Below, in pieces: positions 11,953 through 43,577 of a stretch of DNA of 59,933 bases. The DNA lies in the NCBI GenBank assembly GCA_038214755.1, contig JBBQRQ010000019.1:1-59933 (forward strand). The letters run 5' to 3'. A program made the position numbers and the translations under genes. Source of the stretch: Verrucomicrobiota bacterium. GTDB taxonomy: Bacteria > Verrucomicrobiota > Verrucomicrobiia > Limisphaerales > CANJXF01. Numbering within the stretch: position 1 is the stretch's first letter; every line of letters starts with the position of its first letter. A model generated the notes under the pieces. The model ran no database searches. It saw only the letters and a program-made list of their open reading frames with translations, and was not told where the DNA came from.

Positions 11953-14900
11953 CTAAGGAAGCCGCACTGCGCGATAGAAGCGGGACTGGTAACTGGCCGC
12001 AGCCGTATCAGTGAAGATAAACATGCCATTGCCTCCGGCGGTGTTCGTGCTCACAGCAACCCACGTGGTCAAATTGGTAGAAGCATCGATTCTATAAGTC
12101 GCGCCCGCTTGACCGGATAGGACCAATTGGAAACTCCCATTGGAGAGGACGGCGGCGGAACCAAGCCTGGCCGCTGGCGCGGATTGCACGAGAGTGGAAG
12201 TTTGCGCGCTATTGTTGCCGAGATAGAGATCAACCTCGTTAGCAGCGATACTGGCAAGGTTACTAACCGTTCCAGCGATGGTGGGCGTGACAGTGAAGAC
12301 TGCTGTAGCGCTTGAACCAACATTCAACGCGCCGAGGGCGAACGTAGCCGTTTGACCTACAATCCCGCTATCTCCTTGAGAGGATGAAGTAGAGAACGGA
12401 CTTACGCCCGCAGGCAATGTGTCCGTAACCACTACCGATGTCGCTGTCCCCGGTCCCTGGTTGGAGACGACAATGGTATAGACCAAATGACCTTGAACCA
12501 CCACCGGGTCCGGCGCATCGGTCATTGTCACCGAGAGGTTGGCCGCTGGGTTAACGGTGTTGACGGTAATTAAGGCAAGACGCCATCCGCCGGAAATACT
12601 TCCCGCGTCACCCACTGCGTCGTCATTAACATAGAGAGACCAGACACCATTGGGATTGCCCCCGTTCATGGCAGACAAGGTGCCAGCATAAGGCGCGGCC
12701 GGAGCCGGAGAAGGAAGCGAGTCGCCCGATTCAAAATCGGTGGGTCGAAATGTTCCGGAGGAAATCTGAGTGGCGTCTGGCAATGCTGCTCCAGAATCAT
12801 CGAAGGTCAGGTTCACGGCGGACAAGGCATGAGCGCCACCCGCATCCGACATCAGCATGACCTTCCCACCACTCGGCGATACCAGCATGATGTCGAGGTC
12901 ATCCGGGAATGAATGAGATAACCCATTCAAGGTGACTGCTACTTTGCTAACAAGGCCGCTGGCTCCGGAAATAGTAATGGTTGAAGGGTAAGGTGTGGCT
13001 GGGCCGCTATTGGCAATGGAAATGGATGCGCCATTGGTAAAGTTAGTGTGCTGCGGTAAAGCGAAGGTATAGGCCACGTTCCCCCGATTAACTGCGCCGT
13101 CCTGTAGCTGGAGAGTGGCGGTGATTGTTCCGCTGCTGGCAGAAGAAGCAGTAAAGGTAAAGTTGCGCGAAACGGCAGGTCCATCGCTGATCAAAACGCC
13201 ATAAGTTTGCGAAGTCGAAGGCGCCGCAACTCCACCGGTCGCAAGCAAGGTCGCAACAAGGTTGGTGGTATTGGCGGTTCCAATATTCGCCAGGGCAAAC
13301 GCGATGGTTACCGTCTCTCCTGGGTCAACCGTGCCGTTTGGAGGTGAGCTTTCGGAAATCAAAGTCGATCCGCTCGCCACAATGTTCGGCGAAGGGTTGG
13401 CGACCAGGCTTATGACACTCGCTGAATTATTCGCGCTGTTCGAATCATTCGCAGCGCTGACTACGTTGGCTGTGTTTGTAATCGCCCCGGTAGTAACCGG
13501 TGTCACAGTAATTGAAACCGATGCCAGGCTGCCCGGCGGGATACTACCGATGGAACAAGTCACTACTCCGGCGGAGTTGGAACAAGTGCCTTGCGAAGAA
13601 TTTGCCGAAACAAAAGTCGTGCTGGAAGGCAGCCTGTTCGTAACGACTATTCCGCTGGCCGTCTCTGGTCCGTTGTTGGCCACGACCAAGGTATAGGTGA
13701 GGTTGCGGCCTACCACTGGATTAGGTGTCGCAGAGAGCGTGAGACCCAGGTCAGCGACCGGCAAGACAACGGACGCTAATACGGTGACGGAATTATTGAT
13801 GGCATTTACATCCGTTTCATTGGCGGAAACTACTGCGGTATTGGTAAGCGTGCCTGCGACAGTGGGTCGAATGACAATAGTTACGCTGGCATTACTCCCT
13901 GAAGCCAGGTTACCGAGGTTACCGATGATGGTCGAGCCATTGACCACGACCGGTTGCGACGCGGAGACAAAGGTCGCGCCTGAAGGAAGATCGTTGCTTA
14001 AAATAACACTGTTGGCGATGTCAGGCCCGTTATTTACGGCGGAGAAGGTAAAGGAAGCATCTTGATTGACGACAACTGAATTGGGCGGATTAACCGCCGT
14101 GACTGCCAGGTCCGCAACCTTGTTGACGGGTGAAACGGTAGTAATAGCCACACTCCAACCACCCGCGATATTCCCCAAGTCGCCACTAGTGTCATCGACC
14201 ACGTAGAGCGACCATACGCCATTGGGCGAAGTTCCATCCAACCCATGCAGCAATGCGTCATAAGGTCCAACCGGAGCGGAAGGGAAGGTATCACTGGGAG
14301 AATAATCCGCCGGCCTGAACGTGCCGGAGACAATTTGGTCCGCATCGGCGAGCGGCGAGGACGCATCGGGATCAAGAGTCAAGGTCACGTCGGTCAATCC
14401 ATTTCCACCACCGGCATCGGACATCAGCAATACCTTTCGGCCAGTTGGGTCAACCAACAAAACATCAATGTCATCGGGATAGGTATGGTTAATACGATTG
14501 AGCGAAACCGTTACCTTACTCACCAGGCCGGTCACTCCGGACACGGTGATTTGCGATGGGTAAGGAGAAGCATTCCCGATGGTTGGGATGACAATCGCAT
14601 TGGTATTGGTAAAGGTGTTGAGGGTCGGCAGAACAAAGTTGAAATTAACGTTGGTTACTGGGCCCGAACCATCCTGAAGTCGCAAGGTCGCCGTAATGGT
14701 CTGACCGTAGGAGCCGCTCGCTGTAAAGCTGAAGGTTCTCGCGACAGATGTTCCCCCCGCCGCGACGGAGCCATAACTCTGCGCGCCACTGGGAGAAGTG
14801 ACCCCGCTGCCGGCGAGCAAGGTGGCGATAAGGTTGGTCGTGTTGACGTTGCCGGCATTGCGCAAGCTGAGTTCCACACTGACGGTTTCTCCAAGGTCGA

Positions 14901-17900
14901 TTGTTCCGTTGGCGGGCGATTGGCTTTCCGCCGTCAAGCGAGAACCTGCTGGAGTGATAAAAACAAAAGGCGCGGCAGATACCGCAGTCCGGCTTGCGCT
15001 ATTATTGCCCGAATCGGGATCGCCCTCTGCCGCCGAAACATTGGCGGTCAAAATTATATCTTGCGGAGTCTGAGGCGGCGCGGTTACTACAATAGTTATC
15101 GTCGCGCCGCTGCCACCCAGCAGCGTTCCCAGCGAGGCGCTATACGAATTGCCGGAGCGAGAAAAGCTTCCCTGCGAAAGAGAGTTAGTCACAAAGGTAG
15201 CGTTGGCCGGCAATGAACCATTGACCGTCACAGCATTCGCCACATTAGGCCCCCGGTTAGTGACGGTGATGACAAAAGTAACGTTGCTGCCTACCACCAC
15301 TGGATGCGGAGTGTCTATTATAGTCACCCCCAGGTCGGCCGAAGGAGCAACGGTAGTGGTAGCAGTGGCTACGTTGTTGGCTGGAATCAAGTCGGCCTCA
15401 TTCGCCACGACGCGAGATGTCGCCGTTATAGTCCCGATGCTACCCGGCCTGACGACGATAGTCACGAGCGCGCCACCGCCGTTGGTGATGGCGCCCAGGC
15501 TATAAATAATCGTCCCGCCCGTACTAACAAAAGTTCCCTGGGTCGAGGAAGCAGAGACAAACGTGGCACTGGCCGGCAACGTGTTGGTTAGTTTGATACC
15601 TGTCGCCGCGACAGGCCCGCGGTTAGTTACGGCTATGGTATAAGTCAAAGTTGATCCCACCCCGACCGGGTCCGGCGAATCGACTATGGTTACCCCGAGG
15701 TCCGCGGAAGGTTGCACGACTTGCGTGAATACCGTTACGCTATTGTTCGATGGGTCGGCATCGGTCTGCTCAGAACTCACCGTAGCTGTCGAGGAAATGC
15801 TCCCTGTCGCAGTAGGTCTGACGGTCACGGCGGTCGTAGCCGTGCCGCGCGCGCTGATCCTCCCGTAATTGGCGGTGACGACTCCTCCCGATTGCGAAAC
15901 ATTGCCCTGCGAATTTGTTGCCGTAACGAAGACAACTCCCGGCGGCAGGGATTGGCTCAAGACAACCGACTTCGCCGTGCTAGGTCCACCATTGGTGACA
16001 GTGATGAAATAGGTCAAGTTACTTCCCACGACGACGGGATCAGGGAAGTCAACCATACTCACGCCCATGTCTGAGCCGGGACATTCGCCACCGCCGTCGG
16101 TGCAAGTTATCGGAGACAAAAACAATGACCAGCAGTGAAGCGCGCCAATATCGATCGGCACTTCATCTATAACACGAAGCTTCCACGTTCCGTTGGCATT
16201 CAAGCCGGTCTTCAGGTTAAAAGTGGAAAGGGGTTGGTCAGGTGCGAAGGCTCCGATAAAAGGCGGGTTTCCAGCGGAGATAGCCAGGCTGGCGGAGTCA
16301 TCAAAGGTAGTGCGACTAGTGTCCGGGTTACAGCTACTGCCGAAGTTATCTCCCGAAAGTCCGTTGTTCTGTGAAAGGTTGACCGTCGTGCCGTCGGGCG
16401 CGATGAGTTGGATCAACAAGTCTGAATCATAAGTGTGGGTGAGATATAATCCGACCGTGACCTTGCCGACGCTCCCGCTGAAGTTTGAAACCACGATGGG
16501 TGAACTTATGCCGATGGGGTTTGCATCCGGAATTTGAAAGACTGTGTTATTATCAAGGCGGATAGGAGCACCGATCACACCCGATGGAAGATGGATAAGA
16601 TTTGTCCGGCTATCCACGTCTGATTTTATAACAAGCGTCAGATCCACGGTGGTGCCGCAAATAAATTCCGGAGAGGTGCTGATTCTATACGGAATAAAGT
16701 TGACTCCAGTGCCTCCGACCGGAATATCTGGAAAAGTAGAAACGGACTGCGCGATGATTACACCGAGATTTGTGCTCGTCAAAATCCCTTCTACTCCCGT
16801 GGCAGTTGCCCGCCCACTATTGGTAAGAGTCACGGTCAAAGTATTGCACTCGTTAAAGTCAATCAACCCATTGCCGTTGCCGCCGGCCAACGTATTAGTC
16901 AGTAGAAATAGGTTAGGCCGTGGAATAGGTATCGGCAGGAATTGTAGAGCCGGCAAAGCCATCACGATGCCGATACCGGAATTGTCGTCCCGGCCAGCCC
17001 CCTCTATATCAAGCGATGTGTTAGTGAACGCATTTCGGATTTGCGCTGCGCTCAAGCTTGGATCATAGGATTTGAGCAATGCTGCAACTGCGCCGGCATG
17101 AGGAGCTGCGGCAGATGTGCCAAAGAAAGGGTTCAAGCCGGAATTGGATGGCAAGGTAGTGACTACTCCATCTGCTGCAGCAATGTCTGGCTTTAAGCGC
17201 ACAGCGCCGCCCGTCGATAAAAAATTTCCAGGAGTGACGGCTGAACCGTCGGCGTTATAGAAAAATCTTCGAGGCCCATCCGAGCTAAAGGTCTCGACCG
17301 GATTTTGCGCGCCGCCAATAAACGGGTTGGGGAACGATGTCGCTGCATTCACCGCCCCAACGGCAAAGGCATCCACTGCAGCACAGTGACCTTTAATATT
17401 GCCCGCCGTGCTGATGCTCAATCTCCCACCAATAGTATCCATGTGCAGATAGCGCGCGTCACCCGATGCCTTGACGATGACCAGTCGCTCCCCGGTGGCC
17501 GGAGAGGAAACGATTTCAAAAGGATCTTGAGTTCCGTCCTGAATATTAATGGAGCTTCTCCGAATGTTCGCGCCCGTCGAATCCAAAACATAGAGATCAT
17601 AATCATTGGTCGAAGCGCCCAACGGATCGGACCAAAACAAGACCGTGGCAGATCCAGGCCGGTTGCAGACATTGTAGGCTTGCGTGCCGAAGCTATGCAA
17701 AACTCCGCCTTTTCCATTGACGGGCGCACCCGCTGCGCCGCCATCGGCAAAGTCCCCTTCCCAGGTGCCGGCCGTATTATCTTTTTTATTTCCTTCATTT
17801 CCGGCGGCGGAAAAATAGAGCGCGCCATCGGCGGCCACGCTAGTCACCGCCTGGGCAATAATGCCGTCTTGAAAGGGCGATTCATTGAAATAAAACACAT

Positions 17901-18717
17901 CATCAATAATCACGTCGCAGCCGGCAGCGCGAAGGTTAAGAATATTTTGAGCGAAACCACCAGCGCCACTGAACGCCGTGGCAAAGTAAAGTTTTGAGCC
18001 CGGCGCCAGATCATGGACTATTTCCAACATGGCAGTTCCTTCTCCGCTTGCAGGAACGCCACTTTGTCCTGGCAAGATCACGAGGTCAGACGGCAAATCT
18101 CCCAGCGATTGAGAATTGGCGAGAAAGTCCACACTATCGGAGAGAACTCCCACGTTTACTCCCGAACCATCTACCACGAAGTTTGTTCTCGCGGTATCGG
18201 CGGAATGAGTCGCGTCTCCTTGTGAGGTAACACTGCCGGTATTAGTAATAGCTTGAACTGCGGGACGGATAAATTTTACATCGCCGGACTCGGCAATCAC
18301 CTCGACCTGATCTAAAGAAATAACCGCGCGAAGGGTATGAAAATTGGGCGTGCTGCTAATGACTTTTCCTCCATTGGCATTGATCAGATTTAACAAAGCG
18401 CCAGTGATATTGCCATCTATATCCACCATCACCTGGCCATTGGCTTCAAATTTAACATTAGCCCTCAGTTGCGGCACACCCGCAATGGGTTCATTGCGAC
18501 TTTCTTTAAGGGCTAGGGTCAATTGCGAATCGATTTTTCGAGCGAGAGGTGGAAGAGATTCCTTAAATGCGCGCAACGCGCTGATTTGTTGCAAGGCAGA
18601 GTCGCTGAGATTTTCGGCCGAACTCATCAGCACTGATCGGCAAAAAAGACCGGCGCAAACCCAGCCTATTACGAGAAAGCGGATGCATCTACCAAGTGAG
18701 CCATTCAATATGTTCAT
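11953..18717 (-). CDS. Giant secreted S8/S53-like serine protease with 3 P-domains, 6 DUF11 Ig-like repeats and C-terminal export/sorting-like tail (2254 aa)
   Basis: Signal peptide and prodomain; VGVLSDS, EGTAMLE, SAAGNEG, KPDIAAADG, FFGTSAAAPH; three H(T/S)(Y/F)xDxDI..NG.W.L.V.D P-domains; six (A/S)(D/N)(L/M)xV..P.PV..G..LTY repeats; tail YRIDASTNLTTW..FYRA. Confidence 0.9.
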   Translation of the reverse strand: MNILNGSLGRCIRFLVIGWVCAGLFCRSVLMSSAENLSDSALQQISALRAFKESLPPLARKIDSQLTLALKESRNEPIAGVPQLRANVKFEANGQVMVDIDGNITGALLNLINANGGKVISSTPNFHTLRAVISLDQVEVIAESGDVKFIRPAVQAITNTGSVTSQGDATHSADTARTNFVVDGSGVNVGVLSDSVDFLANSQSLGDLPSDLVILPGQSGVPASGEGTAMLEIVHDLAPGSKLYFATAFSGAGGFAQNILNLRAAGCDVIIDDVFYFNESPFQDGIIAQAVTSVAADGALYFSAAGNEGNKKDNTAGTWEGDFADGGAAGAPVNGKGGVLHSFGTQAYNVCNRPGSATVLFWSDPLGASTNDYDLYVLDSTGANIRRSSINIQDGTQDPFEIVSSPATGERLVIVKASGDARYLHMDTIGGRLSISTAGNIKGHCAAVDAFAVGAVNAATSFPNPFIGGAQNPVETFSSDGPRRFFYNADGSAVTPGNFLSTGGAVRLKPDIAAADGVVTTLPSNSGLNPFFGTSAAAPHAGAVAALLKSYDPSLSAAQIRNAFTNTSLDIEGAGRDDNSGIGIVMALPALQFLPIPIPRPNLFLLTNTLAGGNGNGLIDFNECNTLTVTLTNSGRATATGVEGILTSTNLGVIIAQSVSTFPDIPVGGTGVNFIPYRISTSPEFICGTTVDLTLVIKSDVDSRTNLIHLPSGVIGAPIRLDNNTVFQIPDANPIGISSPIVVSNFSGSVGKVTVGLYLTHTYDSDLLIQLIAPDGTTVNLSQNNGLSGDNFGSSCNPDTSRTTFDDSASLAISAGNPPFIGAFAPDQPLSTFNLKTGLNANGTWKLRVIDEVPIDIGALHCWSLFLSPITCTDGGGECPGSDMGVSMVDFPDPVVVGSNLTYFITVTNGGPSTAKSVVLSQSLPPGVVFVTATNSQGNVSQSGGVVTANYGRISARGTATTAVTVRPTATGSISSTATVSSEQTDADPSNNSVTVFTQVVQPSADLGVTIVDSPDPVGVGSTLTYTIAVTNRGPVAATGIKLTNTLPASATFVSASSTQGTFVSTGGTIIYSLGAITNGGGALVTIVVRPGSIGTITATSRVVANEADLIPANNVATATTTVAPSADLGVTIIDTPHPVVVGSNVTFVITVTNRGPNVANAVTVNGSLPANATFVTNSLSQGSFSRSGNSYSASLGTLLGGSGATITIVVTAPPQTPQDIILTANVSAAEGDPDSGNNSASRTAVSAAPFVFITPAGSRLTAESQSPANGTIDLGETVSVELSLRNAGNVNTTNLIATLLAGSGVTSPSGAQSYGSVAAGGTSVARTFSFTASGSYGQTITATLRLQDGSGPVTNVNFNFVLPTLNTFTNTNAIVIPTIGNASPYPSQITVSGVTGLVSKVTVSLNRINHTYPDDIDVLLVDPTGRKVLLMSDAGGGNGLTDVTLTLDPDASSPLADADQIVSGTFRPADYSPSDTFPSAPVGPYDALLHGLDGTSPNGVWSLYVVDDTSGDLGNIAGGWSVAITTVSPVNKVADLAVTAVNPPNSVVVNQDASFTFSAVNNGPDIANSVILSNDLPSGATFVSASQPVVVNGSTIIGNLGNLASGSNASVTIVIRPTVAGTLTNTAVVSANETDVNAINNSVTVLASVVLPVADLGLTLSATPNPVVGRNLTYTLVVANNGPETASGIVVTNRLPSSTTFVSANSSQGTCSNSAGVVTCSIGSIPPGSLASVSITVTPVTTGAITNTANVVSAANDSNSANNSASVISLVANPSPNIVASGSTLISESSPPNGTVDPGETVTIAFALANIGTANTTNLVATLLATGGVAAPSTSQTYGVLISDGPAVSRNFTFTASSASSGTITATLQLQDGAVNRGNVAYTFALPQHTNFTNGASISIANSGPATPYPSTITISGASGLVSKVAVTLNGLSHSFPDDLDIMLVSPSGGKVMLMSDAGGAHALSAVNLTFDDSGAALPDATQISSGTFRPTDFESGDSLPSPAPAAPYAGTLSAMNGGNPNGVWSLYVNDDAVGDAGSISGGWRLALITVNTVNPAANLSVTMTDAPDPVVVQGHLVYTIVVSNQGPGTATSVVVTDTLPAGVSPFSTSSSQGDSGIVGQTATFALGALNVGSSATAVFTVTPTIAGTVSNLASIAANEVDLYLGNNSAQTSTLVQSAPAARLGSAAVLSNGSFQLVLSGQAGATYRIDASTNLTTWVAVSTNTAGGNGMFIFTDTAAASYQSRFYRAVRLP

Positions 18718-18752
18718 AATACTTGCAAATTTGAATCAAGTTATCAAGGCCT

Positions 18753-27700: not shown

Positions 27701-28157
27701 CTACAAAAAAAGTGACGCTGCTGGCGCCCGCCAGGTTCTGCCGGCCAAAGAGCGCCGGATCAAAATCGTCATTGGAAGCAATAGGAGAACCCAGTTGATC
27801 AATGCTATCCACTCCTGTTCCATCATAAACATCCAATAAAGTGTCGAACTCACTTCCGATAGTATCAAAAGTAACCCAGGCATCCAGGGCGGGCGTCCAC
27901 TGAAACCAGACGGAGGTATTCCCGAATCGACCGGCATGATCAAGTTCGCCACCTTCTCGAGTCGCGCCGACATTGCTTCCGGTAATCGTTCCGATATCAA
28001 TGGAGTCGGCTCCGATCATTTGAGCATTTTCAAAATCATCATTAGCCGGTTGCGCCCAGGCAGAGGTTAGGCTCATGCCTAGCGCCGCGCTTAGTAAAAT
28101 CCCTGAACAAAGAACGCGCAGGGCGCGGCCAAAAATCTTCACGTCGAATTTAAACAT
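18753..28157 (-). CDS. Giant secreted Calx-beta / delta-60 (DUF5122) beta-propeller protein with PPC-like N-terminus, P-domain and 2 DUF11 repeats (3134 aa)
   Basis: Signal peptide AWA-QPANDDF; SVWFQWT..FDTLLDVY; about 12 F....Y.V.E..V.R..DY..L.F..GE..K..I.DD repeats; two blocks of Q.DGKILVGG.FT..IARLN.DGSLD..F blades; tail YVLETTTNL..W..FFRL. Confidence 0.9.
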   Translation of the reverse strand: MFKFDVKIFGRALRVLCSGILLSAALGMSLTSAWAQPANDDFENAQMIGADSIDIGTITGSNVGATREGGELDHAGRFGNTSVWFQWTPALDAWVTFDTIGSEFDTLLDVYDGTGVDSIDQLGSPIASNDDFDPALFGRQNLAGASSVTFFVGAGTNYYIALDGFNGEAGSYTLNWKRGGDRASGEFEFTSTNYYGTPSEGQLDYSDQNGNLRFNRDAAGILITVTRKNGSSGKVRVDYETQEIAPDPMGPEPALEDIDFVPTFGTLVFEDYQMSASFIVPTIPDFFGTGGTFFRVFNVALTDAVLDLAESTDLAPPVISPLHGVALVTIPDANPFPHGPRPPPDMSGLIDRAGSIQFERAHYRRTEGVGTARIKVLRRGGTATEQQAAVTVNYLVNRASTGDPLSSYNAFPLSAGSDYATPSTEPNGDWTVIEPSVQSLTIPSSPPWAYIDIPITEDTLTEFNEDIIVQLYSNTGSPSPRIVPPTDTTAASGYEVGFQDIAILTIMYDDYPAGAVDPNHNSDYDANTTPARNAGPGVNGSVYAVAVQADNKTVLAGSFTAYNGALRNRIARMNTNGSLDTAFDPGSGANRFVAALKIAPDGKILVGGAFTSFNGASHNSIVRLNPNGSLDGSFNVGLGADGTVWSVALQADGKILIAGDFTTVNGNNRARIARLNPDGSVDQTFDPGEGPDSTVFSIAADTDNSILIGGEFTTVSGVPQSSIARLGATGLLSTNFSLLIGANGIVYSVVLQPDRKILVGGAFTEFDATFRNSIVRLNADGSLDPTFDAGTGANDTIYSIVLQSDGKILVGGLFTSINTTRRVGVARLFPFGPVDTSFLDTAYNQFAGLVNSFDNLNVNSRNYVFSLATETNGNVIIGGGFSKVGGGRGSRDVRPEQYADSNFLDEDTRATYRNRNNIARLIGGITPGPGNIEFISDTYAVDQGVSRFFVTLARTNYSSITNYLGAVMANFDIRTYPTGAGAAGSEDFTLSPQYGTPRWGSSWNRTNSLANTRMQSDGFYGLNSSTLPFPDTYHDNQPFPDPGEAFIFIDITPGSLDGSKSVKLELSRPKGARINDDSGFNLGGGGPFFYFDLPFPSHTDPNLEWSLGGEFIPLGTALGRSSATLTLVDAARKAGELNFTAAEVVVNENGTNAQVVVTRNGGNMGAVSVQYSTADGTNSDPNLNAIRNQDYTPRSGTLNFADGVTNKIILIPIINDSIVEPDKTFFVQIFNPTLGAKLGTLTNVTVKIIDDDYPNGHLNFTNATYVVVEGTPQAVIGVSRTGGSLGSVSIEYSTVPGGTATPGQDYVSVTNILTWDSGETSVKTFSIPILDNGQVEDAETVLLQLRNPTVNGVPTTAVLGGQTNATLIIKDDDRYGSFGFNSAAYFANENSGSTTVIIVRTNGIAGTVSLALLVTNGGTVTSTLLSFAPGERAKAVQIPINDNLVANTNLILQLGLGAPSPSGAELSQATAMLTIFDDETFNQPPGSVDTTFTPSEGLNDFVYALALQPDGKLLVGGDFTAANGLPRNRIARLHPDGRTDINFSSISTNAGANGSVRAIVPQSDGRILIGGLFTSVSGVARNHIARLNVDGNSDSTFDPGSASDNLIYAMGETFMGDGVTSTNRRILVAGNFTAFNGTPRNGIVRLLNDGSVDEGFNPGTGASGSNATIYTLTVQTDGKVIIGGDFTSFNGISRPHIARLNVDGSLDTTFDPGSGPDASVRALAIQTDGKIVIGGLFESVNGAASSHIARLQPSGVVDSSFITGEGANDSVYAIALQTDGKIVVGGEFTRANGVNRNRINRLNSDGTIDPSINFGTGANSFVAALALQRQGEIILGGGFTEFDGTFRRHVARLYGRSVFGTGRIEFSSANYQVNENAVEGIITVRRRGGTLGTVTVLVSTSNGTAVAGVDYVAVSTNLTFVLGETFQTFTVPIIDNDLIELDKTLRLTLSNTSADNLGNQITALLTIKNDDSAISFASSTYRFSETPLNGNALISLIRMGSSIVTSSVDIVTTTNGTATPTNDFIIVTNTIVFRPGETNKLVSIPIVDDQLIEGDETVSMILSNVIGAILIEPTSATLTIVDDDFGQGALQFSQPAYSVSETGGVATITVLRTNGTLGFVTVNFSAGGGTATAGLDYAPTNGTLSFGPGESSKSFSVRIFDDTIAEGDETLLLTLSNPSGTSVVGTNVVELTILDNDASFTFSTPAYLVNEGDGGVTIGVRRNNGSNVISAVSYRTSNGSASAGADYTPTTNTLVFAIGEIFKTFTVTILEDTLVEGDEFFNVSLFNPTGATQLNNPSNAVVTITDNDSSLSFSTNNYAVDEGATNVAIVVVRTNSSSGTLTVNFATSNATAIAGADYIGTNFSLVFLDGETAKTILIPITDDTLPEGEETFTVRLTNPSTGVVLGSPGVATVTIIDNDAGLKFSSPTYRISESGVTATITVLRTTVTNTTVSVNYSASDGTARDTQDYVSTSGVLTFTNGETAKTFTVSIIDDTLIEGDETVLLSLFSPSGQATVVSPGAAVLTIVDNDGSLIVAAGSALVSESITPTNGVIDPGETVSLYFAFRNTVGTDTTNLVATLLPGGGVTSPSGPQSYGVLRINGNSVSRLFSFTASGTNGQRITATFQLRDGAFDLGTATFTYALGRTTLGFTNSASILISDSSNPPTPGSPYPSTLNVTGVAGTVSQLSVTLSNVSHAFPDDIDLLLVSPTGEKVMLMSDAGGGSGFNSVTITFDDAAAGLLPDSGLIASGSYKPTDYVSTPADSFPVPAPTGPYASTLSAFNGINPNGAWSLFVVDDTFFQNGNIANGWSLSLNSSSGLSPIADMSVTITDSPDPAATNNALIYTVTIVNSGPSPVTGVVVTNVLPAGVTFVSASCNCLTNVNNTLIGNLGALAKDGTVSFTVRVTPTMLGVITNTVSVFANEVDPNLLNNVATEVTTVDVPRADLAISLSGSPNPVLINGTLTYSIVVSNLGPVTATGVTVTNTLPAGAVPLSATSSQGTIGVVENNYIFNLGTLAPTPAAATISITVRPTIAGTITNFATVTSGLEDPFKSNNSASVKTVVEQPSLALRFEGNLLALTWGTNAPGYVLETTTNLSPPIVWSRATNYPVSIVNGENRVTINPTNGIRFFRLRQ

Positions 28158-28190
28158 AGGTTTTCGGGAATTTCAGGCGGGCCCGGCCAC

Positions 28191-31100
28191 TTAGTTGCCT
28201 TCCAAAAGGACCGCGCCACTTTGATTTGTGCCGAGGAAAAAGCCCCTCGCATTATTCTGCTGCTGCAAGACAACTCCCTTGATCTGAGTTGGTTTCCTCG
28301 TGTCAGGATGCAAAAAGCTGCCCGTTAAAAGTCCGGTAGTCCGGCTGATAGAAACGGTCAAACGATTTGTCCCGGTAATGCCCGTTCCTATAAGCGCCTG
28401 GTTGGTAATGGGCGCACTAAGGTTTCCGCCCCGTAAAACCACCGTGCTGTTATTCAAGTTCAATACCTTTATTCCGGTTGCTGGAGGAGTATAGGTCGAA
28501 CCGATTACGGTGGTCAGGTTGGTAAAGCCCGCGTTGCCTGCTTTAATCCAACTCACGTCACCACGGAAACTGCTGCCCGGCTCAGTGGTAAAAATAATCT
28601 GACTTAAGGTAGAACCCGCCCCGTTGTAAAGCGGAAGATAGAACGGCCACTGCCCATTTTTAGAAAGACTTGCCTTCTGCTTATTAATTGAGGTTCCATC
28701 GGCGAGGGTGACACTGTAGGTAATAGCTCCCGCCGCAGTGATCGTTGCTGTTCCAAACCCATCTCCCGTGAAACTGTTGGAACCTCCACCCGGAATAACC
28801 AGCGTATATTTTCCAGCCGGAACAGAGCTTGAGCCGGCGCGGTCGCCCACGAAGGCAGCGACCCAATGTTCGCCATGAACAAGGCCAGTCACCTGACCGG
28901 ATTGAGCGGCCAAATCGAGTTGAAGTTCCAGGGTCAAAGGCGTTTTGCCCACGCGAGCTACGTTAAGGATCGCATGACCCGTGCTATTGAACATGCCCGA
29001 AAACGAATAAGCTTTGCCGGAAATCAGTTTTCCAGACATAACTCCGCCCTTTGGGGTGACAGTGAAAGTAATGAACCCGGAACTCTCATGCTTGACTCCA
29101 TAGACCGTGTCGTAGAAGAGGCCGTTGTAAATACCTTTGACCGGCTCGAAGGGGTTGGGGACAAAGTTCGCTTCCAGCACAAGGTTGCGCCGCATCGTAA
29201 AGGTCAGAGCAGGGTCGGGTGTATTGGTCCCGCCGCTCCAATTGGCAAAGACTTGTCCGCTTCCCGGAGTCGCTTTCAACTTATAGGTTGAACCTATCTT
29301 CAAGGTCTTGCCATCAAGGTTAGGGGTAACGATTCCAACCCCCTTCGCTTTAAGAATCAACGGGCTGGTTCCTCCGAGTAAACCAAAGTCCTCCACGTGA
29401 ACGATGCGTCCCGGGAATGCGGTCTCAAGTTTGTCGCCCGCATTGGAGTTGATGTAATAGATCCGCATGTTGTCATCAATGGCCAGAAGGTTGTTCAACG
29501 AGGTATTGATATTAACGTCGGTCGTTACCTGAAAATCCAGATTGACGACATAGAGTGCGTTCTCCACACCCGCGCCGGTGAAACGAAGCTTGGCGGCGTC
29601 ACTCCGCAAGTCGAGAATCAGATGTCCCACCGCCACGTTGTTCATATAACCCTCTGGACCCGCGCCCACATCTTCCCCCGCCCAGATGTGTTGCGACTCC
29701 TGGTTAGCCGATGCGATGGTGCGAATCTCCGTTTTTAACAGGTCTCCTTGAACAGGTTTCCTTTCCAGAATGATTCCATCGCTCACCGTCCAAAAGTTAC
29801 TGGAAGCAGCGTTCAAGTCCGTCAGCAAATTGGTGACGCCCAGGACCAGCCTTCCAAACTGGAGTTGACCCAAACGATCAGGTTGCCCAGCCGTAAGAGT
29901 GGAATTGGTGACAATCAATTCACCCGCGCGCAACTCAACATCCCGGTCGGTGAATATTTTCCCATTGGAAAGGTTAGCGGTGCGAGCTTGAACCATCACA
30001 GAGCCACCCTGGTTTGCGATAATGGTTCCACTGTTTTCAAACCGAGTGGATTTAAAGAGCGGTGCAACCGCCATGATGGTTCCTCGATTTGTCACCGAAT
30101 CAAAACCTTTGTCCGTATCAAAACCAAAGAAGGCGTCATTAGCTCCCTGGAAAACGGAATTGGATTCGTTCAGGAAATTCTTAACGCCGTCAAAATTTTC
30201 GCTATGCAGGTTAAGCGCATCCTCCGTCAAAGTAATGACGATGTTTGTTTTGATGGTGCCATCGACGTTTGTTCCACGAATCGATCCACCGAACGTAAGA
30301 TTTTCAGCCACGAAACGCGCGCGACGGACGATGGTGAGATCATCTTTAACCACCAGGTTGGTCGAGCGAAGAGTTAGATCGCGAATAGTAGGTTTGAAGT
30401 CGGCTTTCAGATCATGATCCAAAACCAAAACGTGAAACATGACATTGTTGGTGGCACCCCTATTTGTCTCGGTGTTATTCCAAATCGCGCTCCAGGCAAA
30501 CACATCTCCGCGCACCCGTTTGAAATGGGATGGGAACACATTGGAGATAACCAGCGAGCCATTGGTGCTGCCCAGGTCTGCGTTAATAATCCCGGCGCTA
30601 ATGTCCGCTGCCCCAACCCCTTTCAAATGCTTGGCGTTCATGCTTAACACTCCCTCGGTGCGGATGCGGGCCAGGCTTAAGTCCAGGGTTTCCGCCTTTA
30701 TGTCTATGCGACCGGCTTGATTGGTCGGGTCAGGCAGGAAGACAAAGTCATTGTTAAAAAAGCCGAAGTTAAAAAAGTTGCTGTTGAAGGCTGTCCCCGC
30801 CAATGATTCGGGATTGCGCCCTATCTTGGCGGAGTAGGCTCCGTAAAAAGCGGCTATGCCGTCCTTTTCCTGGTAAGTGTTGCCGGGGAAGAGCAGCCTT
30901 GGGTCATACTGGGTATTAGTCGGTTGAGCAAACAGCCATTCAAAGGGAGTAGCGGTGGCTATCTCGTAGCCGGAAGGACGGGCCTGAGAGTTAATACTCT
31001 GCGCATTGGTCAATAGGACGATGCTCGTCTGTTCAGCGGAACCATCGATAAAATAAACCGAATTGGTCACTGTTCGCGCCGATACAGGATCATATTCCGG

Positions 31101-32093
31101 GGTGCTGAATTCCACCAACGCGGCCTCTCCGAACCGATTACGGGTTTGAAAGATCGGAATACTCGAAGAGCCAAACCGGACCTGAGCGGTGATATTGGTA
31201 TCGGTAAAATTCGTTTTAAGAAACACCACTTGAATTTCGATATTGGTTCCGAATTGATTGACATTGGCGAAGGCCCCGAAATCCGCGGGGAAGGTTGTAG
31301 GCAAAGTTTGAATCAGGCCAAAAAATCCGCCGACTCCAAAACCAGCGGAGCGCAATTGCACGGCATGCTGAGGAGTGCGGACACCGTTGGGCGGGAAATA
31401 GCCGAAGGTCCCATTGCGCAAGTTGATGGTGAAAGGACCCGCGCCCCAATAAATATCCTCCACTCCGAACGCATTGACGTAGGAATTGCCGATGAAGAAA
31501 CCTCGATTCACATTGCCACTAAAAAAGGTATTCTGGAAAAAGTTAGTGTCACCATTGGCCGTCTGGCCCGCAGTGAGCGAACCACGGGCGATATCGACGG
31601 TCGTGCCGGTGAGTTGCATCAACCCAACGGTGCCCACCGATAACGTTCCGCGATTGACCAGATTGGTTGCGGAGATTTTCACAAAGGAAGCCGTTCCGGC
31701 TGCACCGCCGAAAAAAAACCCATTGCGCCCGACTCCGCCGAAACCCAAAAAGCTGGCCGAATTATCCACTCCTGAAATAAGGGCGCCATTACCGTTGTAG
31801 AAGCTGGAGAGCGGTCGGCGAGGAGGAGTGCTCACCGTATCTAAAATGGTATCGAGTTGAAAGCCGACGCTACCGATCATGGTGCCGCGGTTGGTGAAGT
31901 AAAGCGTGTTGTGCGTGCTGTAGGGAAATTCGTCGGTGATAATATTGGTAAAGGACCCCAGATTGAGGAAGGTGGTGGCGTCAATAGGCAATGCATTGGT
32001 AATAACCCCGGCGTTAAAAAAGAGCGGGCTGGGGGCTGCGAAAGTCAGGTTACACCAAACCAACGCCAGAGAGATTGTAAAAATACGCTTCAT
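28191..32093 (-). CDS. Large secreted hypothetical protein (about 1300 aa): Phe/Asn/Thr-rich N-terminus, beta-helix-like middle, InlB-B/Flg_new-like repeat, beta-rich C-terminal domain
   Basis: Signal peptide MKRIFTISLALVWCNLTFA; N.GTI.A-type repeats; LKATPGSGQVFANWSGG..LEANF; GIYNGLFYD..GFITFTVT. Confidence 0.8.
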   Translation of the reverse strand: MKRIFTISLALVWCNLTFAAPSPLFFNAGVITNALPIDATTFLNLGSFTNIITDEFPYSTHNTLYFTNRGTMIGSVGFQLDTILDTVSTPPRRPLSSFYNGNGALISGVDNSASFLGFGGVGRNGFFFGGAAGTASFVKISATNLVNRGTLSVGTVGLMQLTGTTVDIARGSLTAGQTANGDTNFFQNTFFSGNVNRGFFIGNSYVNAFGVEDIYWGAGPFTINLRNGTFGYFPPNGVRTPQHAVQLRSAGFGVGGFFGLIQTLPTTFPADFGAFANVNQFGTNIEIQVVFLKTNFTDTNITAQVRFGSSSIPIFQTRNRFGEAALVEFSTPEYDPVSARTVTNSVYFIDGSAEQTSIVLLTNAQSINSQARPSGYEIATATPFEWLFAQPTNTQYDPRLLFPGNTYQEKDGIAAFYGAYSAKIGRNPESLAGTAFNSNFFNFGFFNNDFVFLPDPTNQAGRIDIKAETLDLSLARIRTEGVLSMNAKHLKGVGAADISAGIINADLGSTNGSLVISNVFPSHFKRVRGDVFAWSAIWNNTETNRGATNNVMFHVLVLDHDLKADFKPTIRDLTLRSTNLVVKDDLTIVRRARFVAENLTFGGSIRGTNVDGTIKTNIVITLTEDALNLHSENFDGVKNFLNESNSVFQGANDAFFGFDTDKGFDSVTNRGTIMAVAPLFKSTRFENSGTIIANQGGSVMVQARTANLSNGKIFTDRDVELRAGELIVTNSTLTAGQPDRLGQLQFGRLVLGVTNLLTDLNAASSNFWTVSDGIILERKPVQGDLLKTEIRTIASANQESQHIWAGEDVGAGPEGYMNNVAVGHLILDLRSDAAKLRFTGAGVENALYVVNLDFQVTTDVNINTSLNNLLAIDDNMRIYYINSNAGDKLETAFPGRIVHVEDFGLLGGTSPLILKAKGVGIVTPNLDGKTLKIGSTYKLKATPGSGQVFANWSGGTNTPDPALTFTMRRNLVLEANFVPNPFEPVKGIYNGLFYDTVYGVKHESSGFITFTVTPKGGVMSGKLISGKAYSFSGMFNSTGHAILNVARVGKTPLTLELQLDLAAQSGQVTGLVHGEHWVAAFVGDRAGSSSVPAGKYTLVIPGGGSNSFTGDGFGTATITAAGAITYSVTLADGTSINKQKASLSKNGQWPFYLPLYNGAGSTLSQIIFTTEPGSSFRGDVSWIKAGNAGFTNLTTVIGSTYTPPATGIKVLNLNNSTVVLRGGNLSAPITNQALIGTGITGTNRLTVSISRTTGLLTGSFLHPDTRKPTQIKGVVLQQQNNARGFFLGTNQSGAVLLEGN

Positions 32094-32102
32094 ATACAAA
32101 TA

Positions 32103-33518
32103 TTAAAATCGTCTGCTAAGGACTTGGCTCTCCAAATCGCGGATGCTGGTTCCCTGGGGGAAAACCACAGGATCATTGGTGGACCCATCGAATGAACCCC
32201 AGCGAAATTCATTACCCACATTCAGGGCGGTATCTTCGTTCAGGAAAAATGGAGTGGCATTATAAAACTGCGGACTGGCTTTGTGAAAGGTAATGATAGT
32301 TTGCGGATCAATCGTCCCCGGCCCGACGGACGTGACGGAAGGATTAAAATTGGGCAATCCATTGGTCAGAAAGTTGAGGCCCCGGAAAGACGACCGAGGG
32401 ATGACGAGCAATCCTGCCGCCGGAAAATTCAAGTTACCCGCCGTAAATAAAATATCAGGACGGAATACGACGCGCCGCACCTTTTGGTCAACGATACTGG
32501 TTTTCCCCGACAAAGTCGATGCGAACACAGGGCTGGTGAAGGACTGAACAATGGGTCTAAACACCGTTCCAAACAACGAATTGTAACTGGTTTTTCTAAA
32601 GCTTATTTTTTCGATGCCCGCACGAAGAGCTAACGAATTTGTGATAACGCTGTTGGTCTGAAAAAAGTTAACCGGTTGCCAGGGGCCGGAGAAGGCCGAT
32701 GCTATGGAATTCGCTGGCAGGACTTCGTTGTTGAGATTGTTTTTGCGATAGATATAGCGCAATCCGCCCGCATCATCCCGGGTAATATTAAGATAATAGC
32801 CACCCAAGCGAAGCCCACGCCCAGGAAACCCGCCTTTGAAAGAGGCTACGGCGTTCAAGGGAATGCTGGTGGGGTCCACCGTCGCTTCGACCGCAAACGC
32901 CCATGCGATAACCGGACAAAAGTCCACGATGTCATAGGTATAAAGAGCTCCGTTGACATAATGGCTGTAGTTCCAACTCACCGGATCGAAATTGCGCATC
33001 ACAACCTGATAGCTAAATTGGCAAGCTATCGGGGAGGTAAACGGGACACGTTTTTGTAAATCAAAAACATGCTCTTCTCCCGACAAACCCATCTGCTCGA
33101 GAATCAGACCGAGCGTATAGGATTTGAGGTCGATCAGATTTAATGCGCCAGCCCTTTCATTGGCAAGCTGGGCATCTTGCAAGAGAAACTCTGAAAGGTT
33201 GGTGCTCATTCTCGAGACAGGGGGAAGCTTGTTTATGATGGCGAACGCCTTATCGACCGCCTTTACCCCTTCTGCCCCAAAATAATCCAGGAAAGTAGAA
33301 TCGAATCCATAGGTAATGGTTGGTGTATTGAGGCGAAACTCCTCGCCGATATCCTTTGAACCGCCAGGCTGGGCTTCTTCAAACTCAAAACCGACCTGAA
33401 AGCCGGTTTCTGGCGTTTGCCAGTCATCGAACGCTCCGAGGAGGGAAAACGCCGACGCGCCTTGTAAACCGAAGCTCAAGAACAAGAGGCACAAGATTTT
33501 ATTTAAAGATCGCAACAT
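32103..33518 (-). CDS. Secreted hypothetical protein, possibly degenerate matrixin (M10)-like fold without HExxH
   Basis: Signal peptide ASA-FSLLG; RLNTPTITYGFD..AVDKAFAII..IDLKSYTLGLILEQMGLS..ITRDDAGGLRYIY. Confidence 0.75.
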   Translation of the reverse strand: MLRSLNKILCLLFLSFGLQGASAFSLLGAFDDWQTPETGFQVGFEFEEAQPGGSKDIGEEFRLNTPTITYGFDSTFLDYFGAEGVKAVDKAFAIINKLPPVSRMSTNLSEFLLQDAQLANERAGALNLIDLKSYTLGLILEQMGLSGEEHVFDLQKRVPFTSPIACQFSYQVVMRNFDPVSWNYSHYVNGALYTYDIVDFCPVIAWAFAVEATVDPTSIPLNAVASFKGGFPGRGLRLGGYYLNITRDDAGGLRYIYRKNNLNNEVLPANSIASAFSGPWQPVNFFQTNSVITNSLALRAGIEKISFRKTSYNSLFGTVFRPIVQSFTSPVFASTLSGKTSIVDQKVRRVVFRPDILFTAGNLNFPAAGLLVIPRSSFRGLNFLTNGLPNFNPSVTSVGPGTIDPQTIITFHKASPQFYNATPFFLNEDTALNVGNEFRWGSFDGSTNDPVVFPQGTSIRDLESQVLSRRF

Positions 33519-33536
33519 ATGAAAAAATTTACTGTA

Positions 33537-34805
33537 TCAAGGAATTATGGTAACTGGAGTGAGAGTGTACTTCCGACCGAATAGGTCAAAGCCTGTCACC
33601 GCCATGAAACTGGACCAACTTACGAGAAACTGACCCGCGCCATTTGCACCAATGGCAGGATAGATCTGCCGACTGACCACCGTATTGTTCGCGCGAAACT
33701 CAGATCCCGACGGCTCGGTGCCCCCTTGCAAGAGCCGGCCAAAAACACCCTCCCACGATCCGTCCTGGCCCAGACTTGTCCAAACGACGACACAATCATT
33801 TCCTATGGTCGCGATTCTTGGGCGATATTGGTCGCCGTAAGTATTGGTGTTGATTTTGAAATCCGCGCCCGCCGCAACTCCGTCCGCCGAAAAGGAACGT
33901 CCCACGATCTCCCAACTGTTCGAGCGGTTTTGCGAATCCTTTTCGCTCCATGCCACAGTGAATCCGCCATTGGACAGAGGCGCCATGGAAGGATTGGCGC
34001 AAATGTTATTGCCTGAGTTGACCAGTATTTCGTCCGAGAACGCATTCGCGCTTGCATCGAATAAACGAGCATAAACGTCCACGCTCCCCACCGATGCAGT
34101 TGAACTCATGAAACGTTCTTGTTCAGAAATCCAGGTGATGACGACGTTTCCATTTTTCAAAGTCGCGATGGCAGGTGTCCGTTGGTTGAAAGCCACCGCT
34201 TGATTGACTTGGAACTCCATGGGCGCCATCGAACCCGTCGCGGAAATTTTTCGCGCGTAGATTCCCATCATGCTTCCATCCTGCCCGTAACTCTGCCATG
34301 CGACCAGCGCGCCTCCGTCTGGCAACGCCGCTACCACTGGCTCGCTCTGCTGATCTTTGATATAGGAATTGATGCGAACATCCGAGGTGAGAAACGTTCC
34401 ATCGCTCTTTAAAATTCGAACATAAATATCCGCAGTCCCCAGACCATTTCCTTGCCAGACAAAAATGGCGTCGCCGTTGGCGAGCAACTGGACTTGAGGT
34501 TTCCTTTGGTCACCTTTAGCGATTTTGTTGACGGTGAAACTGGAAAGTTTTGTAAAAGCGGAATTGAGACGCACACACCCAATCCCCGAACCTACTTTGT
34601 CCACGGCGTTGTCCTCCCAAACGAGATAGCCGCCGTTTTGATTCAGAGCGATGCTGGAATGCCCTTGATCGCCCACGAGCGCGCCGGTGATCGCGTATTC
34701 ATTGCCTTGAGGCATCGCTACATTTTGTGCGGAAACAAAAAGCGGAAACGCCAGAAAAATGGCAGGCAAGACCAACCGCTCGCGAACAGATAACAAAAAT
34801 GGCAT
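33537..34805 (-). CDS. Secreted beta-propeller repeat protein
   Basis: About 7 repeats of EF.VN....DQ..P.(V/I)A.L..G..(L/V)V.W.S..QDGS..G(I/V)(Y/F)AR; signal peptide ending VSA-Q; start at ATG 34805. Confidence 0.82.
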   Translation of the reverse strand: MPFLLSVRERLVLPAIFLAFPLFVSAQNVAMPQGNEYAITGALVGDQGHSSIALNQNGGYLVWEDNAVDKVGSGIGCVRLNSAFTKLSSFTVNKIAKGDQRKPQVQLLANGDAIFVWQGNGLGTADIYVRILKSDGTFLTSDVRINSYIKDQQSEPVVAALPDGGALVAWQSYGQDGSMMGIYARKISATGSMAPMEFQVNQAVAFNQRTPAIATLKNGNVVITWISEQERFMSSTASVGSVDVYARLFDASANAFSDEILVNSGNNICANPSMAPLSNGGFTVAWSEKDSQNRSNSWEIVGRSFSADGVAAGADFKINTNTYGDQYRPRIATIGNDCVVVWTSLGQDGSWEGVFGRLLQGGTEPSGSEFRANNTVVSRQIYPAIGANGAGQFLVSWSSFMAVTGFDLFGRKYTLTPVTIIP

Positions 34806-36129: not shown

Positions 36130-36144
36130 CGGCGTGAGCAAGTA

Positions 36145-43047: not shown

Positions 43048-43051
43048 GGCT

Positions 43052-43575: not shown

Positions 43576-43577
43576 AA

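Follow-up and report, generated by a model that had tools for sequence, protein, structure and literature searches.

The locus described here raises the question of what a run of five genes for secreted proteins has to do with the pilus-type secretin module that precedes it on the same strand. Both lie within a 59,933-nt stretch of Verrucomicrobiota DNA (the window), and the relative of the upstream module in Akkermansia muciniphila (Amuc_1098-1102, MUL2; the primary MUL paper is reportedly that of Davey et al., 2023) is medically prominent. A sequence-only reading had proposed that the five genes encode a multi-subunit adhesin, fibre or sheath. The answer preferred here, as a tentative one, concerns the first three genes, which encode a propeller protein, a pseudo-metzincin and a beta-helix protein: this trio may be exported via the adjacent secretin and form a surface appendage that binds or breaks down polymers. 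Its three unnamed families are permanently coupled to the module in the order Limisphaerales, which makes them concrete candidates for the proteins that the module exports or displays. A literature search found no description of the trio, of the extended locus or of the C-terminal tail domain discussed below.

Layout of the Locus

As first read, the five genes are co-directional, all on the minus strand and separated by gaps of 18, 9, 33 and 35 nt, and an N-terminal signal peptide is predicted for each of the five proteins by eye and by a crude hydrophobicity script. The secretin operon does lie upstream on the same strand and ends 1517 nt from the propeller gene. Between the two stands a 5'-3' exonuclease gene (35215..36141, minus strand; Pfam 5_3_exonuc_N and 5_3_exonuc) that the earlier reading did not list. 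It is a housekeeping gene outside the system, flanked in this genome by gaps of 181 and 409 nt, and it occupies the same place in six of ten relatives and is absent from the other four. Because it intervenes, both here and in those six relatives, co-transcription of the trio with the secretin is not assured.

The Upstream Secretin Module

The first gene of the module (40891..42777, minus strand) encodes a 628-aa, Amuc_1101-like fusion protein, a PilM joined to a PilN-like part with membrane and coiled-coil regions, and has a hydrophobic segment past residue ~400. It matches PilM_2 (127 bits) and the TIGR01175 pilM model (153.9 bits, above the cut-off of 133). Next come a 331-aa Amuc_1100-like protein (39893..40888, minus strand) and, at the Amuc_1099 position, a 257-aa protein, p257 (39116..39889, minus strand), which matches no Pfam or NCBIfam family and is kept in 10/10 relatives at 30-69% identity. 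The module closes with a 925-aa, TPR-bearing, Amuc_1098-like secretin (36323..39100, minus strand; Pfam Secretin 112 bits, above the cut-off of 27.5).

Gene order and strand are those of MUL2, the secretins of both loci carry TPR repeats, and the NCBIfam models for Amuc_1101, Amuc_1100 and Amuc_1098 match the window proteins over nearly full length (for Amuc_1100, positions 1-326 of 326 at E 5e-16). All three scores nevertheless fall under the equivalog cut-offs: 496 bits against 650 for NF045709 (Amuc_1101_fam), 59 against 180 for NF038287 (Amuc_1100) and 342 against 750 for NF042912 (Amuc_1098_fam). The two middle proteins also differ from MUL2 in lacking overall pairwise similarity. BLASTP of the Amuc_1100-like protein against its positional counterpart in an Akkermansia-like genome (G270) found no similarity, and the likeness of p257 to its counterpart is confined to the N-terminal segment. 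No ORF for the pilin-like Amuc_1102 (MUL2A) lies upstream of PilM in 42778-43577, and the G270 protein, used as one query, had no match at E<=1 in the genome, which is 97% complete.

At the far end the locus has coaE, as do Akkermansiaceae, where coaE and rho come after the secretin (PMC13174399). Here the stretch from secretin to coaE also holds the trio and the giants, whereas the Akkermansia-like genome examined goes directly from secretin to rho and has no trio genes there. In Akkermansia, amuc_1099-1102 (MUL2) are required for mucin transport and processing (PMC13174399; PMC12418764). By analogy with MUL2, the present system may serve to capture polymeric substrates at the cell surface.

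Conservation in the Order

Presence was counted in 60 genomes of the same order, and synteny was compared at ten loci from different families of the order, two of them same-genus. The p471 family (the pseudo-metzincin) occurs in 54 of the 60 genomes, the propeller in 53 and the beta-helix family in 51, mostly as single copies. By hand comparison of the listed coordinates, the propeller gene is directly upstream of p471 in 50/54 genomes; on the downstream side, its direct neighbour is the beta-helix gene in 47/54. The longer order of PilM, Amuc_1100-like protein, p257, secretin, (exonuclease), propeller, p471 and beta-helix protein is kept on one strand in 10/10 relatives, four of which have the propeller gene directly after the secretin at gaps of 5-137 nt. 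The earlier reading had linked these genes to a secretin platform, and that link is conserved throughout the order. As the arrangement is kept order-wide, the five proteins are likely to be the surface-displayed products of the channel or its working parts. Gene order suggests export through the secretin.

The idea of a five-gene unit fared less well, as only three genes are conserved. Behind the trio lies a variable slot that holds some giant at six of the ten loci and none at the other four, which include both same-genus genomes. Relatives of the Calx giant occur at full length in G043 and in part in both G055 and G039, and the catalytic half of the S8 giant is matched at one locus of ten, that of G043, a distant relative with the same five-gene order. 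Co-occurrence of the 471-aa, 1300-aa and Calx-beta genes had been suggested as a check; it holds for the first two, and the Calx-beta gene is variable.

Single-copy conservation across the order is to be expected of machine parts no less than of cargo. The trio might be built into the machine, either as a cap associated with the secretin or as a tip or priming complex of the PilY1 kind, leaving only the giants as clients, an explanation that seems rather unlikely. It accounts for the observation that the trio members are mostly single-copy and retain 30-69% identity across the order, whereas the giants come and go. It sits less well with their distribution, since the trio was not found outside the order (p471 gave one weak partial match among 250 genomes from other orders of the phylum) and the secretin type is present in 237 of 250 phylum genomes (E<=1e-20).

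The Core Trio

The first core gene (33537..34805, minus strand; the longest frame reaches 34898) encodes a secreted protein of 422 aa with seven predicted propeller blades. The call of a propeller at this position, already made in the sequence-only reading, is borne out by seven repeats of ~55 aa with a conserved Trp at 63, 117, 170, 225, 286, 342 and 397, that is, by repeats rather than by a model. The tip proteins PilY1 and PilC are exported by Sec and have a beta-propeller, which speaks for the trio as machine parts. On the other side, the propeller protein has no Pfam match at E<=0.01, to PilY1 or to any other family, and its profile matches no PDB sequence at E<=1. The ESM Atlas returned only weak clusters, unnamed or labelled 'TolB family'.

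The second core gene (32103..33518, minus strand) encodes p471, a 471-aa protein whose AF2 model (pLDDT 87.7) combines a metzincin-like part, residues ~25-300, with a beta-rich C-terminal domain. All 19 chains that match the model with Z>=2 are metzincins, the best with Z 4.1 and rmsd 4.8 over 124 residues, and no other superfamily (astacin, serralysin, MMPs and ADAMs belong to this one) is matched by the fold. The assignment, weak by score, rests on this agreement of all 19 matches. Foldseek found no PDB match for the model at E<=0.001, and the p471 profile found none among PDB sequences below E 0.04. Unlike metzincins, p471 lacks the zinc motif: in place of HExxHxxGxxH it has LEQMGLSGEEH (L140, E141, G144, G147, H150), of which H150 is kept in 36 of 68 sequences, and no column has His or Cys conserved in 85% or more of these 68. 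The earlier description of a matrixin-like protein without Zn ligands agrees with both the modelled fold and the alignment. On the predicted model, p471 would be a pseudo-enzyme with a metzincin-like fold unable to bind zinc canonically. None of its 1088 homologues is named. Propeller and pseudo-protease may act as non-catalytic partners or adaptors.

The third core protein (28191..32093, minus strand, 1300 aa; 1302 aa with a longer start at 32099) is, in its AF2 model (pLDDT 81.3), a right-handed beta-helix of ~900 residues. Residues 1-~905 form a conserved shaft, and the C-terminal part is variable. It is Phe/Asn-rich, as first described, with 7.2% F and 8.1% N in the 1302-aa protein against 5.1% and 4.5% in the ORFs of the genome. 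The best structural match is HMW1 (2odl; Z 18.4, rmsd 2.7 over 240 residues), followed by EtpA (8cpk; Z 18.1), HxuA (4rt6; Z 17.0) and then tailspikes and GH28 enzymes. Foldseek against the PDB gave no match at E<=0.001 and the ESM Atlas no usable match. The idea of an adhesin gains some substance from this predicted model, since long beta-helices of this type are those of adhesins or tailspikes.

The closest structures are therefore those of two-partner-secretion (TPS) exoproteins (HMW1, EtpA, HxuA, FHA), which share the right-handed beta-helix and whose matches cover residues 25-902 of the model. They differ from the window protein in sequence, with only 12-14% identity in the alignments and no sequence similarity. 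No NPNL-type TPS motif was seen by eye, no Pfam match to a TPS domain was found at E<=0.01, and no TpsB gene is apparent in the window. The fold is also common to tailspikes and polysaccharide lyases: 137 chains match at Z>=8, and rank 50 still has Z 11.9.

The beta-helix family comprises 1028 cluster representatives at E<=1e-30. Flg_new_2 is matched at residues 916-982 of the window protein, and in homologues the C-terminal head is a GH30, a GH44, an Ig-like domain or the tail domain discussed below. GH30 and GH44 heads suit an exposed effector better than a built-in machine part. In the preferred reading, export of the trio through the secretin, the beta-helix protein would be exported by Sec and then pass lengthwise through the neighbouring secretin to become a shaft with a variable head.

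Relation to Known Secretion Systems

Type IVa pilus PilMNOPQ with PilY1/PilC resembles the locus in having a PilM (here extended by a PilN-like part), a pair of small envelope proteins, a secretin and an associated propeller protein with predicted Sec export. It differs in that the window encodes no ATPase, platform protein or pilin (no PilB/T or PilC), and in that the propeller here has no Pfam family. To our knowledge, described pilus systems offer no equivalent of the partners seen here, a pseudo-metzincin and a beta-helix of 900 residues.

Secretins let folded proteins through, and the substrates of type II systems include beta-helix pectate lyases. The locus is like a type II system in that a secretin stands beside genes for proteins predicted to be Sec-exported, folded, beta-helical and enzyme-bearing. 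It is unlike one in that the secretin scores under the GspD cut-off (157 bits against 351 for TIGR02517) and no GspC-M genes are nearby. We know of no conserved C-terminal domain in type II substrates.

Alternatively, the proteins could be ordinary surface or secreted proteins that leave by another route, for example another type II system, their placement reflecting inherited order or co-regulation; we regard this as fairly unlikely. The genome as a whole would allow it. It holds four secretins, three besides the one at this locus, and 12 GspE-type and 16 GspF-type matches elsewhere, with all T2SSE and T2SSF matches on other contigs. The conserved neighbourhood also includes housekeeping genes, the exonuclease and coaE, and scans for promoters and terminators gave counts no different from shuffled sequence. 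Against such a route, order and strand are kept in 10/10 loci at 28-60% identity, where unlinked genes usually scatter, and in 4/10 the propeller gene directly abuts the secretin.

The pattern of a propeller gene after a secretin appears again at another, unrelated operon of this genome. On contig C5, a pilMNOPQ-type operon comprises a pilM of canonical size, three small genes and a secretin, and 40 nt after that secretin begins a gene for an NHL-propeller/Ig/TSP3 protein with the C-terminal tail discussed below. Among 22 relatives with a homologue of this propeller protein, 12 carry it immediately after that secretin. This recurrence argues against another route and also favours the trio as machine parts, as a propeller protein again follows a pilus-type secretin.

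The Two Giants

The domain content given in the sequence-only reading stands for both giants. The 3134-aa protein (18753..28157, minus strand) has nine Calx-beta, 10-12 DUF5122/delta-60 and two DUF11 matches and one P-domain. The 2254-aa protein (11953..18717, minus strand) is a subtilase with a Peptidase_S8 domain, three P-domains and six DUF11. Its PF00082 match (50.7 bits, above the cut-off of 21.8) spans only profile positions 128-288 of 288, and its GTSAAAPH aligns with the serine region of solved subtilases. The homologous modules noticed earlier correspond to a 545-residue module with 47% identity (BLASTP over 547 columns, E 1e-122) at aa 1253-1786 of the S8 giant (13360..14961, minus strand) and aa 2533-3077 of the Calx giant (18927..20561, minus strand).

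The five proteins had been cast as subunits of one fibre or sheath, for which the subtilase would serve in maturation, the pseudo-protease as scaffold and an operon-specific tail as the address for the secretin. The tight gaps between all five genes, the modules and tails common to the giants, and the five-gene order kept in G043 all suit this model, but it is very improbable. The giants are missing in 4/10 loci, even within the genus, and the S8 catalytic part is matched in 1/10. A dedicated maturation protease is unlikely for the same reasons, the variability of the giants and the single locus with an S8 catalytic part. In the preferred reading, the giants would be interchangeable extra cargo rather than obligatory subunits.

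The C-Terminal Tail

Similar tails do end both giants, although the copy of the Calx giant is weak. The tail of the S8 giant (11956..12165, minus strand) scores 72.6 bits against an HMM built from the genome and ends 4 aa before the C-terminus. That of the Calx giant (18756..18965, minus strand) is divergent, ends in RFFRL 2 aa before the C-terminus and scores 13.5 bits when the HMM leaves this copy out. The tail profile found no PDB sequence below E 0.04, the tails of both giants had no NCBIfam match at E<=0.01, and the isolated tails had no Pfam match at E<=10.

The tail is a C-terminal domain of ~60 residues that closes 99 ORFs of this genome and also occurs in 101 of 250 phylum genomes of other orders. 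It cannot be the operon-specific export signal once proposed, and its spread counts further against the five-subunit model, as does the fact that three of the five operon proteins are tail-less in this genome. In relatives, the tail also closes the propeller and the beta-helix protein. The genes for the ~100 proteins that bear it lie dispersed through the genome, away from any secretin, which lends some support to export by another route. The tail would instead be a general module of ~100 surface or secreted proteins that may aid sorting or retention and does not define the operon.

An HMM of the tail correlated with Amuc_1098-type secretins had been proposed as a check. The HMM was built and recovered ~100 proteins; the correlation is uninformative, as the secretin matched in 237/250 genomes and the tail in 101/250. 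Of the 13 genomes with no secretin match, 11 also lack a tail match, and the two that have one (G258 and G264) contain withheld stretches; these genomes are close kin and support no conclusion. As a general receptor for the tail, p471 was considered and rejected: the tail occurs in 101/250 genomes of other orders, where p471 gave one weak partial match.

The T9SS C-terminal domains of Bacteroidota (Por_Secre_tail) resemble the tail, a small, beta-rich domain that in one genome stands at the very end of ~100 otherwise unrelated surface or secreted proteins. They differ from the tail in phylum and sequence, with no match between them; the tail is shorter, at ~60 residues, and its sorting role is that of a candidate. 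It is conceivable, if quite unlikely, that Verrucomicrobiota possess a CTD-directed surface route through PilQ-type secretins, with the tail as address or docking module and the trio as the order-specific adaptor and fibre of one such machine. Such a route would parallel type IX CTD sorting, with type IV pilus components as its machinery. The tail is in any event a candidate signal for sorting or retention, in a phylum for which little has been established about how proteins are sorted. The proteins that bear it are of extracytoplasmic types: 17 of 20 sampled from the 99 carry Ig, Calx-beta, CBM96, Malectin, Golvesin_C, NHL or similar domains, and the surface proteome so marked is large, with many Ig-like stalks and carbohydrate-binding modules.

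Gene Order and Conservation

Five long genes follow one another on the minus strand, with intergenic gaps of 18, 9, 33, and 35 nt, much as a sequence-only reading of the window had described them. As open reading frames they comprise a propeller gene (33537–34898, with the signal-peptide start at 34805), the gene for the 471-residue protein p471 (32103–33518), a third gene (28191–32099, with an ATG at 32093), and two giants, a Calx-beta/delta-60 protein of 3134 residues (18753–28157) and an S8 subtilase of 2254 residues (11953–18717). Signal peptides are predicted for all five products, as that reading had it: a basic stretch, a hydrophobic core, and an Ala-rich cleavage-type site can be recognized by eye, and a crude script agrees. 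A secretin operon on the same strand ends 1517 nt upstream of the block and encodes PilM/N (40891–42777), an Amuc_1100-like protein (39893–40888), p257, a small protein at the Amuc_1099 position (39116–39889), and the secretin (36323–39100). The proposed distance of 1.5 kb is thus correct, but a stand-alone 5'-3' exonuclease gene lies in the interval (35215–36141, minus strand) and had gone unmentioned. The dephospho-CoA kinase gene coaE comes next after the last giant, with a likely start at 11780. G+C is even across the window (0.50–0.56), so there is no island signature. The divergent intergenic region upstream of pilM (43049–43527) carries two copies of a REP- or MITE-like element of ∼175 nt (92%/85% identical, 312-nt spacing), both with a perfect 29-nt inverted repeat.

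Conservation of the first three genes was observed directly. Among 60 genomes of the same order, Limisphaerales (a set that takes in G009, marked unpublished), p471 was matched in 54, and profiles matched the propeller in 53 and the third protein in 51. By hand comparison of the listed coordinates, 50 of the 54 p471 genomes have the propeller gene co-directional with p471 and immediately before it (exceptions G017, G028, G037, and G039), and 47 have the third gene immediately downstream of p471 (exceptions G010, G017, G021, G028, G037, G045, and G050, several of them at contig ends). One genome, G011, has two complete blocks of the three genes, on contigs C37 and C2. A profile search of 250 phylum genomes outside the order returned a single weak match to p471, over 68 residues.

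The 40-kb surroundings of p471, inspected in ten genomes that represent different families, show the same single-strand order at every locus: PilM, Amuc_1100-like protein, p257, secretin, propeller, p471, and third gene, with the propeller position in G039 taken by another tail-bearing protein. The exonuclease gene separates secretin and propeller at six loci, and the propeller lies 5–137 nt behind the secretin at the remaining four, so the genes for the secreted proteins do not everywhere abut the secretin operon. At least one giant stands behind the third gene, ahead of coaE or the limit of the inspected 40 kb, at six loci; at four, including both same-genus genomes inspected (G001 and G005), coaE follows the third gene directly. 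Only one locus, that of G043, gave a match to the catalytic half of the subtilase, and its five genes are ordered as in the window. This synteny and the patchy presence of the giants indicate that the conserved unit consists of the envelope module and three genes, with the giants occupying a changeable slot. Co-occurrence and gene order, proposed as a check of a five-gene unit, therefore hold for the 471- and 1300-residue proteins and fail for the giants. A five-subunit assembly with a dedicated protease, although it matches the layout in the window and in G043, is weakened by these comparative data and now seems very improbable.

Pfam and NCBIfam bear out the Calx-beta/delta-60 and subtilase labels of the giants. 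The first has Calx-beta (9 stretches) and DUF5122/delta-60 (12 and 10) together with DUF11 and one P-domain; the second combines Peptidase_S8 with three P-domains and a sixfold DUF11 repeat. The homologous module noted in both spans 545 residues at 47% identity. On the S8 giant (16618–18717, minus strand), the subtilase profile aligns only from its position 128 to 288, the latter half of the catalytic domain, and does not place the triad Asp and His, leaving this giant a predicted protease only.

The Three Conserved Proteins

Neither the propeller nor p471 matches a family in Pfam or NCBIfam. The first gene product is predicted to be a propeller from seven repeats of ∼55 residues, each with a conserved Trp. 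Long forms in other genomes run from the propeller through an Fn3-like segment and a DSDGDG-type repeat to a C-terminal tail domain of ∼60 residues (see below).

p471 has 1088 homologues at E ≤ 1e-5, none of them named; their source names, where given, are Limisphaerales or Verrucomicrobia. An AlphaFold model built with 68 sequences (pLDDT 87.7, pTM 0.88) found nothing at E ≤ 0.001 in Foldseek. A wider structural search gave 19 chains with Z ≥ 2, covering model residues ∼25–300, and all are metzincins: astacin, BMP1, serralysin, MMP-2/9/12/20, snapalysin, myroilysin, ADAM10/17, ADAMTS5, mirolysin, ulilysin, meprin, and the EcxA subunit. Z values are low (best 4.1), so that the metzincin assignment depends on all matches agreeing. 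Where metzincins have HExxHxxGxxH, the family reads LEQMGLSGEEH; Glu141 is kept in 61 of the 68 sequences, Gly144 in all 68, and His150 in 36, and no column of His or Cys reaches 85%. The exclusively metzincin matches and the degraded motif support the earlier description of a matrixin-like protein lacking zinc ligands, and the model suggests that p471 is a pseudo-protease with a β-rich C-terminal domain. Long forms of 735–763 residues (P0094, P0098, P0101, P0109, and P0117) carry a He_PIG Ig-like domain; they match p471 only at ∼1–275 and ∼293–468, which puts the extra part between the N- and C-terminal halves. The p471 relative in G039 is longer still, at about 1200 residues.

The third protein, of 1300 residues, is enriched in Phe and Asn, as had been noticed (7.2 and 8.1% versus 5.1 and 4.5% in the open reading frames of the genome), and its sole family match in Pfam and NCBIfam is Flg_new_2 at residues 916–982. 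The model of residues 1–910 (pLDDT 81.3) predicts a long right-handed β-helix. Its best structural match is the HMW1 secretion domain (Z 18.4, rmsd 2.7, 240 residues), followed by EtpA (Z 18.1) and HxuA (Z 17.0 over residues 25–902), with phage tailspikes, GH28 enzymes, and PL6 lyases lower in rank. The fold is common enough that rank 50 still scores Z 11.9, so these matches identify the class of fold but no particular family. A profile collected 3043 cluster representatives at E ≤ 0.001, of which 1028 pass E ≤ 1e-30; lengths are mostly 950–1050 or 1270–1500 residues. The region behind the shaft is variable: Flg_new_2 in the window, and in homologues GH30 (P0144), GH44 with Big_7 (P0137), He_PIG, or, in other members, the tail only.

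The C-terminal Tail

The similar tails reported on both giants are clear on the S8 giant, whereas the Calx giant is a weak member, to which an HMM that excludes it gives 13.5 bits. A search of the genome with the C-terminal 80 residues of the S8 giant gave 72 matches at E ≤ 10, among them 42 at E < 0.001, the self-match included. Iterating the HMM on the open reading frames of the genome yielded 110 domains in 109 frames at E ≤ 0.001, of which 99 end within 12 residues of the C terminus (87 of 95 at E ≤ 1e-6); the consensus closes with RFYR and two to eight further residues. The tail has no model in Pfam or NCBIfam, and its profile finds nothing below E 0.04 among PDB sequences. Among the best-scoring 20 of the 99 C-terminal carriers, 17 have Pfam matches, all of extracytoplasmic kinds (Ig_3/I-set, Calx-beta, Big_7, Golvesin_C, CBM96, Malectin, NHL, LTD, He_PIG, γ-glutamyltranspeptidase, Amidase_2, SpoIID, and PATR). 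A profile of 22 tails matches 101 of 250 genomes from other orders of the phylum. Its spread through genome and phylum and the extracytoplasmic kind of its carriers mark the tail as a widely used C-terminal module of secreted or surface proteins, and a reading of it as an export signal particular to this operon is not borne out. Even so, the tail has a link with this locus. Across the ten relatives it closes the protein in the propeller slot six times, the β-helix protein four times, a downstream giant four times, and p471 never. In the window genome, the propeller and the β-helix protein lack it.

Possible Export Route and Role

Four secretins of the genome exceed the Pfam cut-off. One belongs to a second operon (contig C5:54633–62333) with a pilM of canonical size (375 residues), three small genes, and a 546-residue secretin. 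Behind it by 40 nt, on the same strand, is the gene for a 1049-residue protein with an NHL propeller, an Ig domain, a bacterial TSP3 repeat, and the tail, the same build from propeller to tail as in the long propellers of the locus. The C5 secretin was matched in 22 of 30 relatives, and at least 12 of those 22 have an NHL-protein homologue immediately after it, a count that scored the top 25 candidates per genome and may include misses. The type II secretin on contig C20 is without such a propeller neighbor. That two unrelated PilQ-type operons both have such a propeller protein behind them argues that the neighborhood is functional. The trio might instead use another export route, with the secretin a neighbor only by descent or regulation; the exonuclease gene stands between them at six of the ten loci, but the recurrence in a second operon makes this reading doubtful.

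In the Akkermansia-like genome examined, the secretin is directly followed by rho, without the trio, a layout that fits the order secretin, coaE, rho published for Akkermansiaceae (PMC13174399). The trio could also be a built-in part of the machine, which we consider about as unlikely as the reading with another export route. According to two papers that cite the primary study, Akkermansia MUL2 (Amuc_1098–1101) is needed for mucin transport and processing and is believed to assemble a pilus of type IV kind with which the cell attaches (PMC13174399, PMC12418764). We found no description of the trio, the extended locus, or the tail in the literature searched.

Our preferred reading, held tentatively, is that the upstream module is a divergent relative of MUL2 and that in Limisphaerales the trio would be exported by Sec and then pass through, or dock into, the adjacent secretin. 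The β-helix protein may form a surface shaft bearing a variable head that binds or cleaves glycans; the propeller and the pseudo-metzincin would be non-catalytic partners, and the giants optional extra cargo. A role in polymer foraging, which we infer, would fit the glycoside hydrolase heads of some β-helix family members and the sulfatase genes nearby. Three sulfatase genes with SGSH_C domains and a gene for a DUF4185 protein lie near the locus (45464–48511 and 50878–52293 (minus strand), 6603–7733 (minus strand)), consistent with an organism that degrades sulfated glycans.
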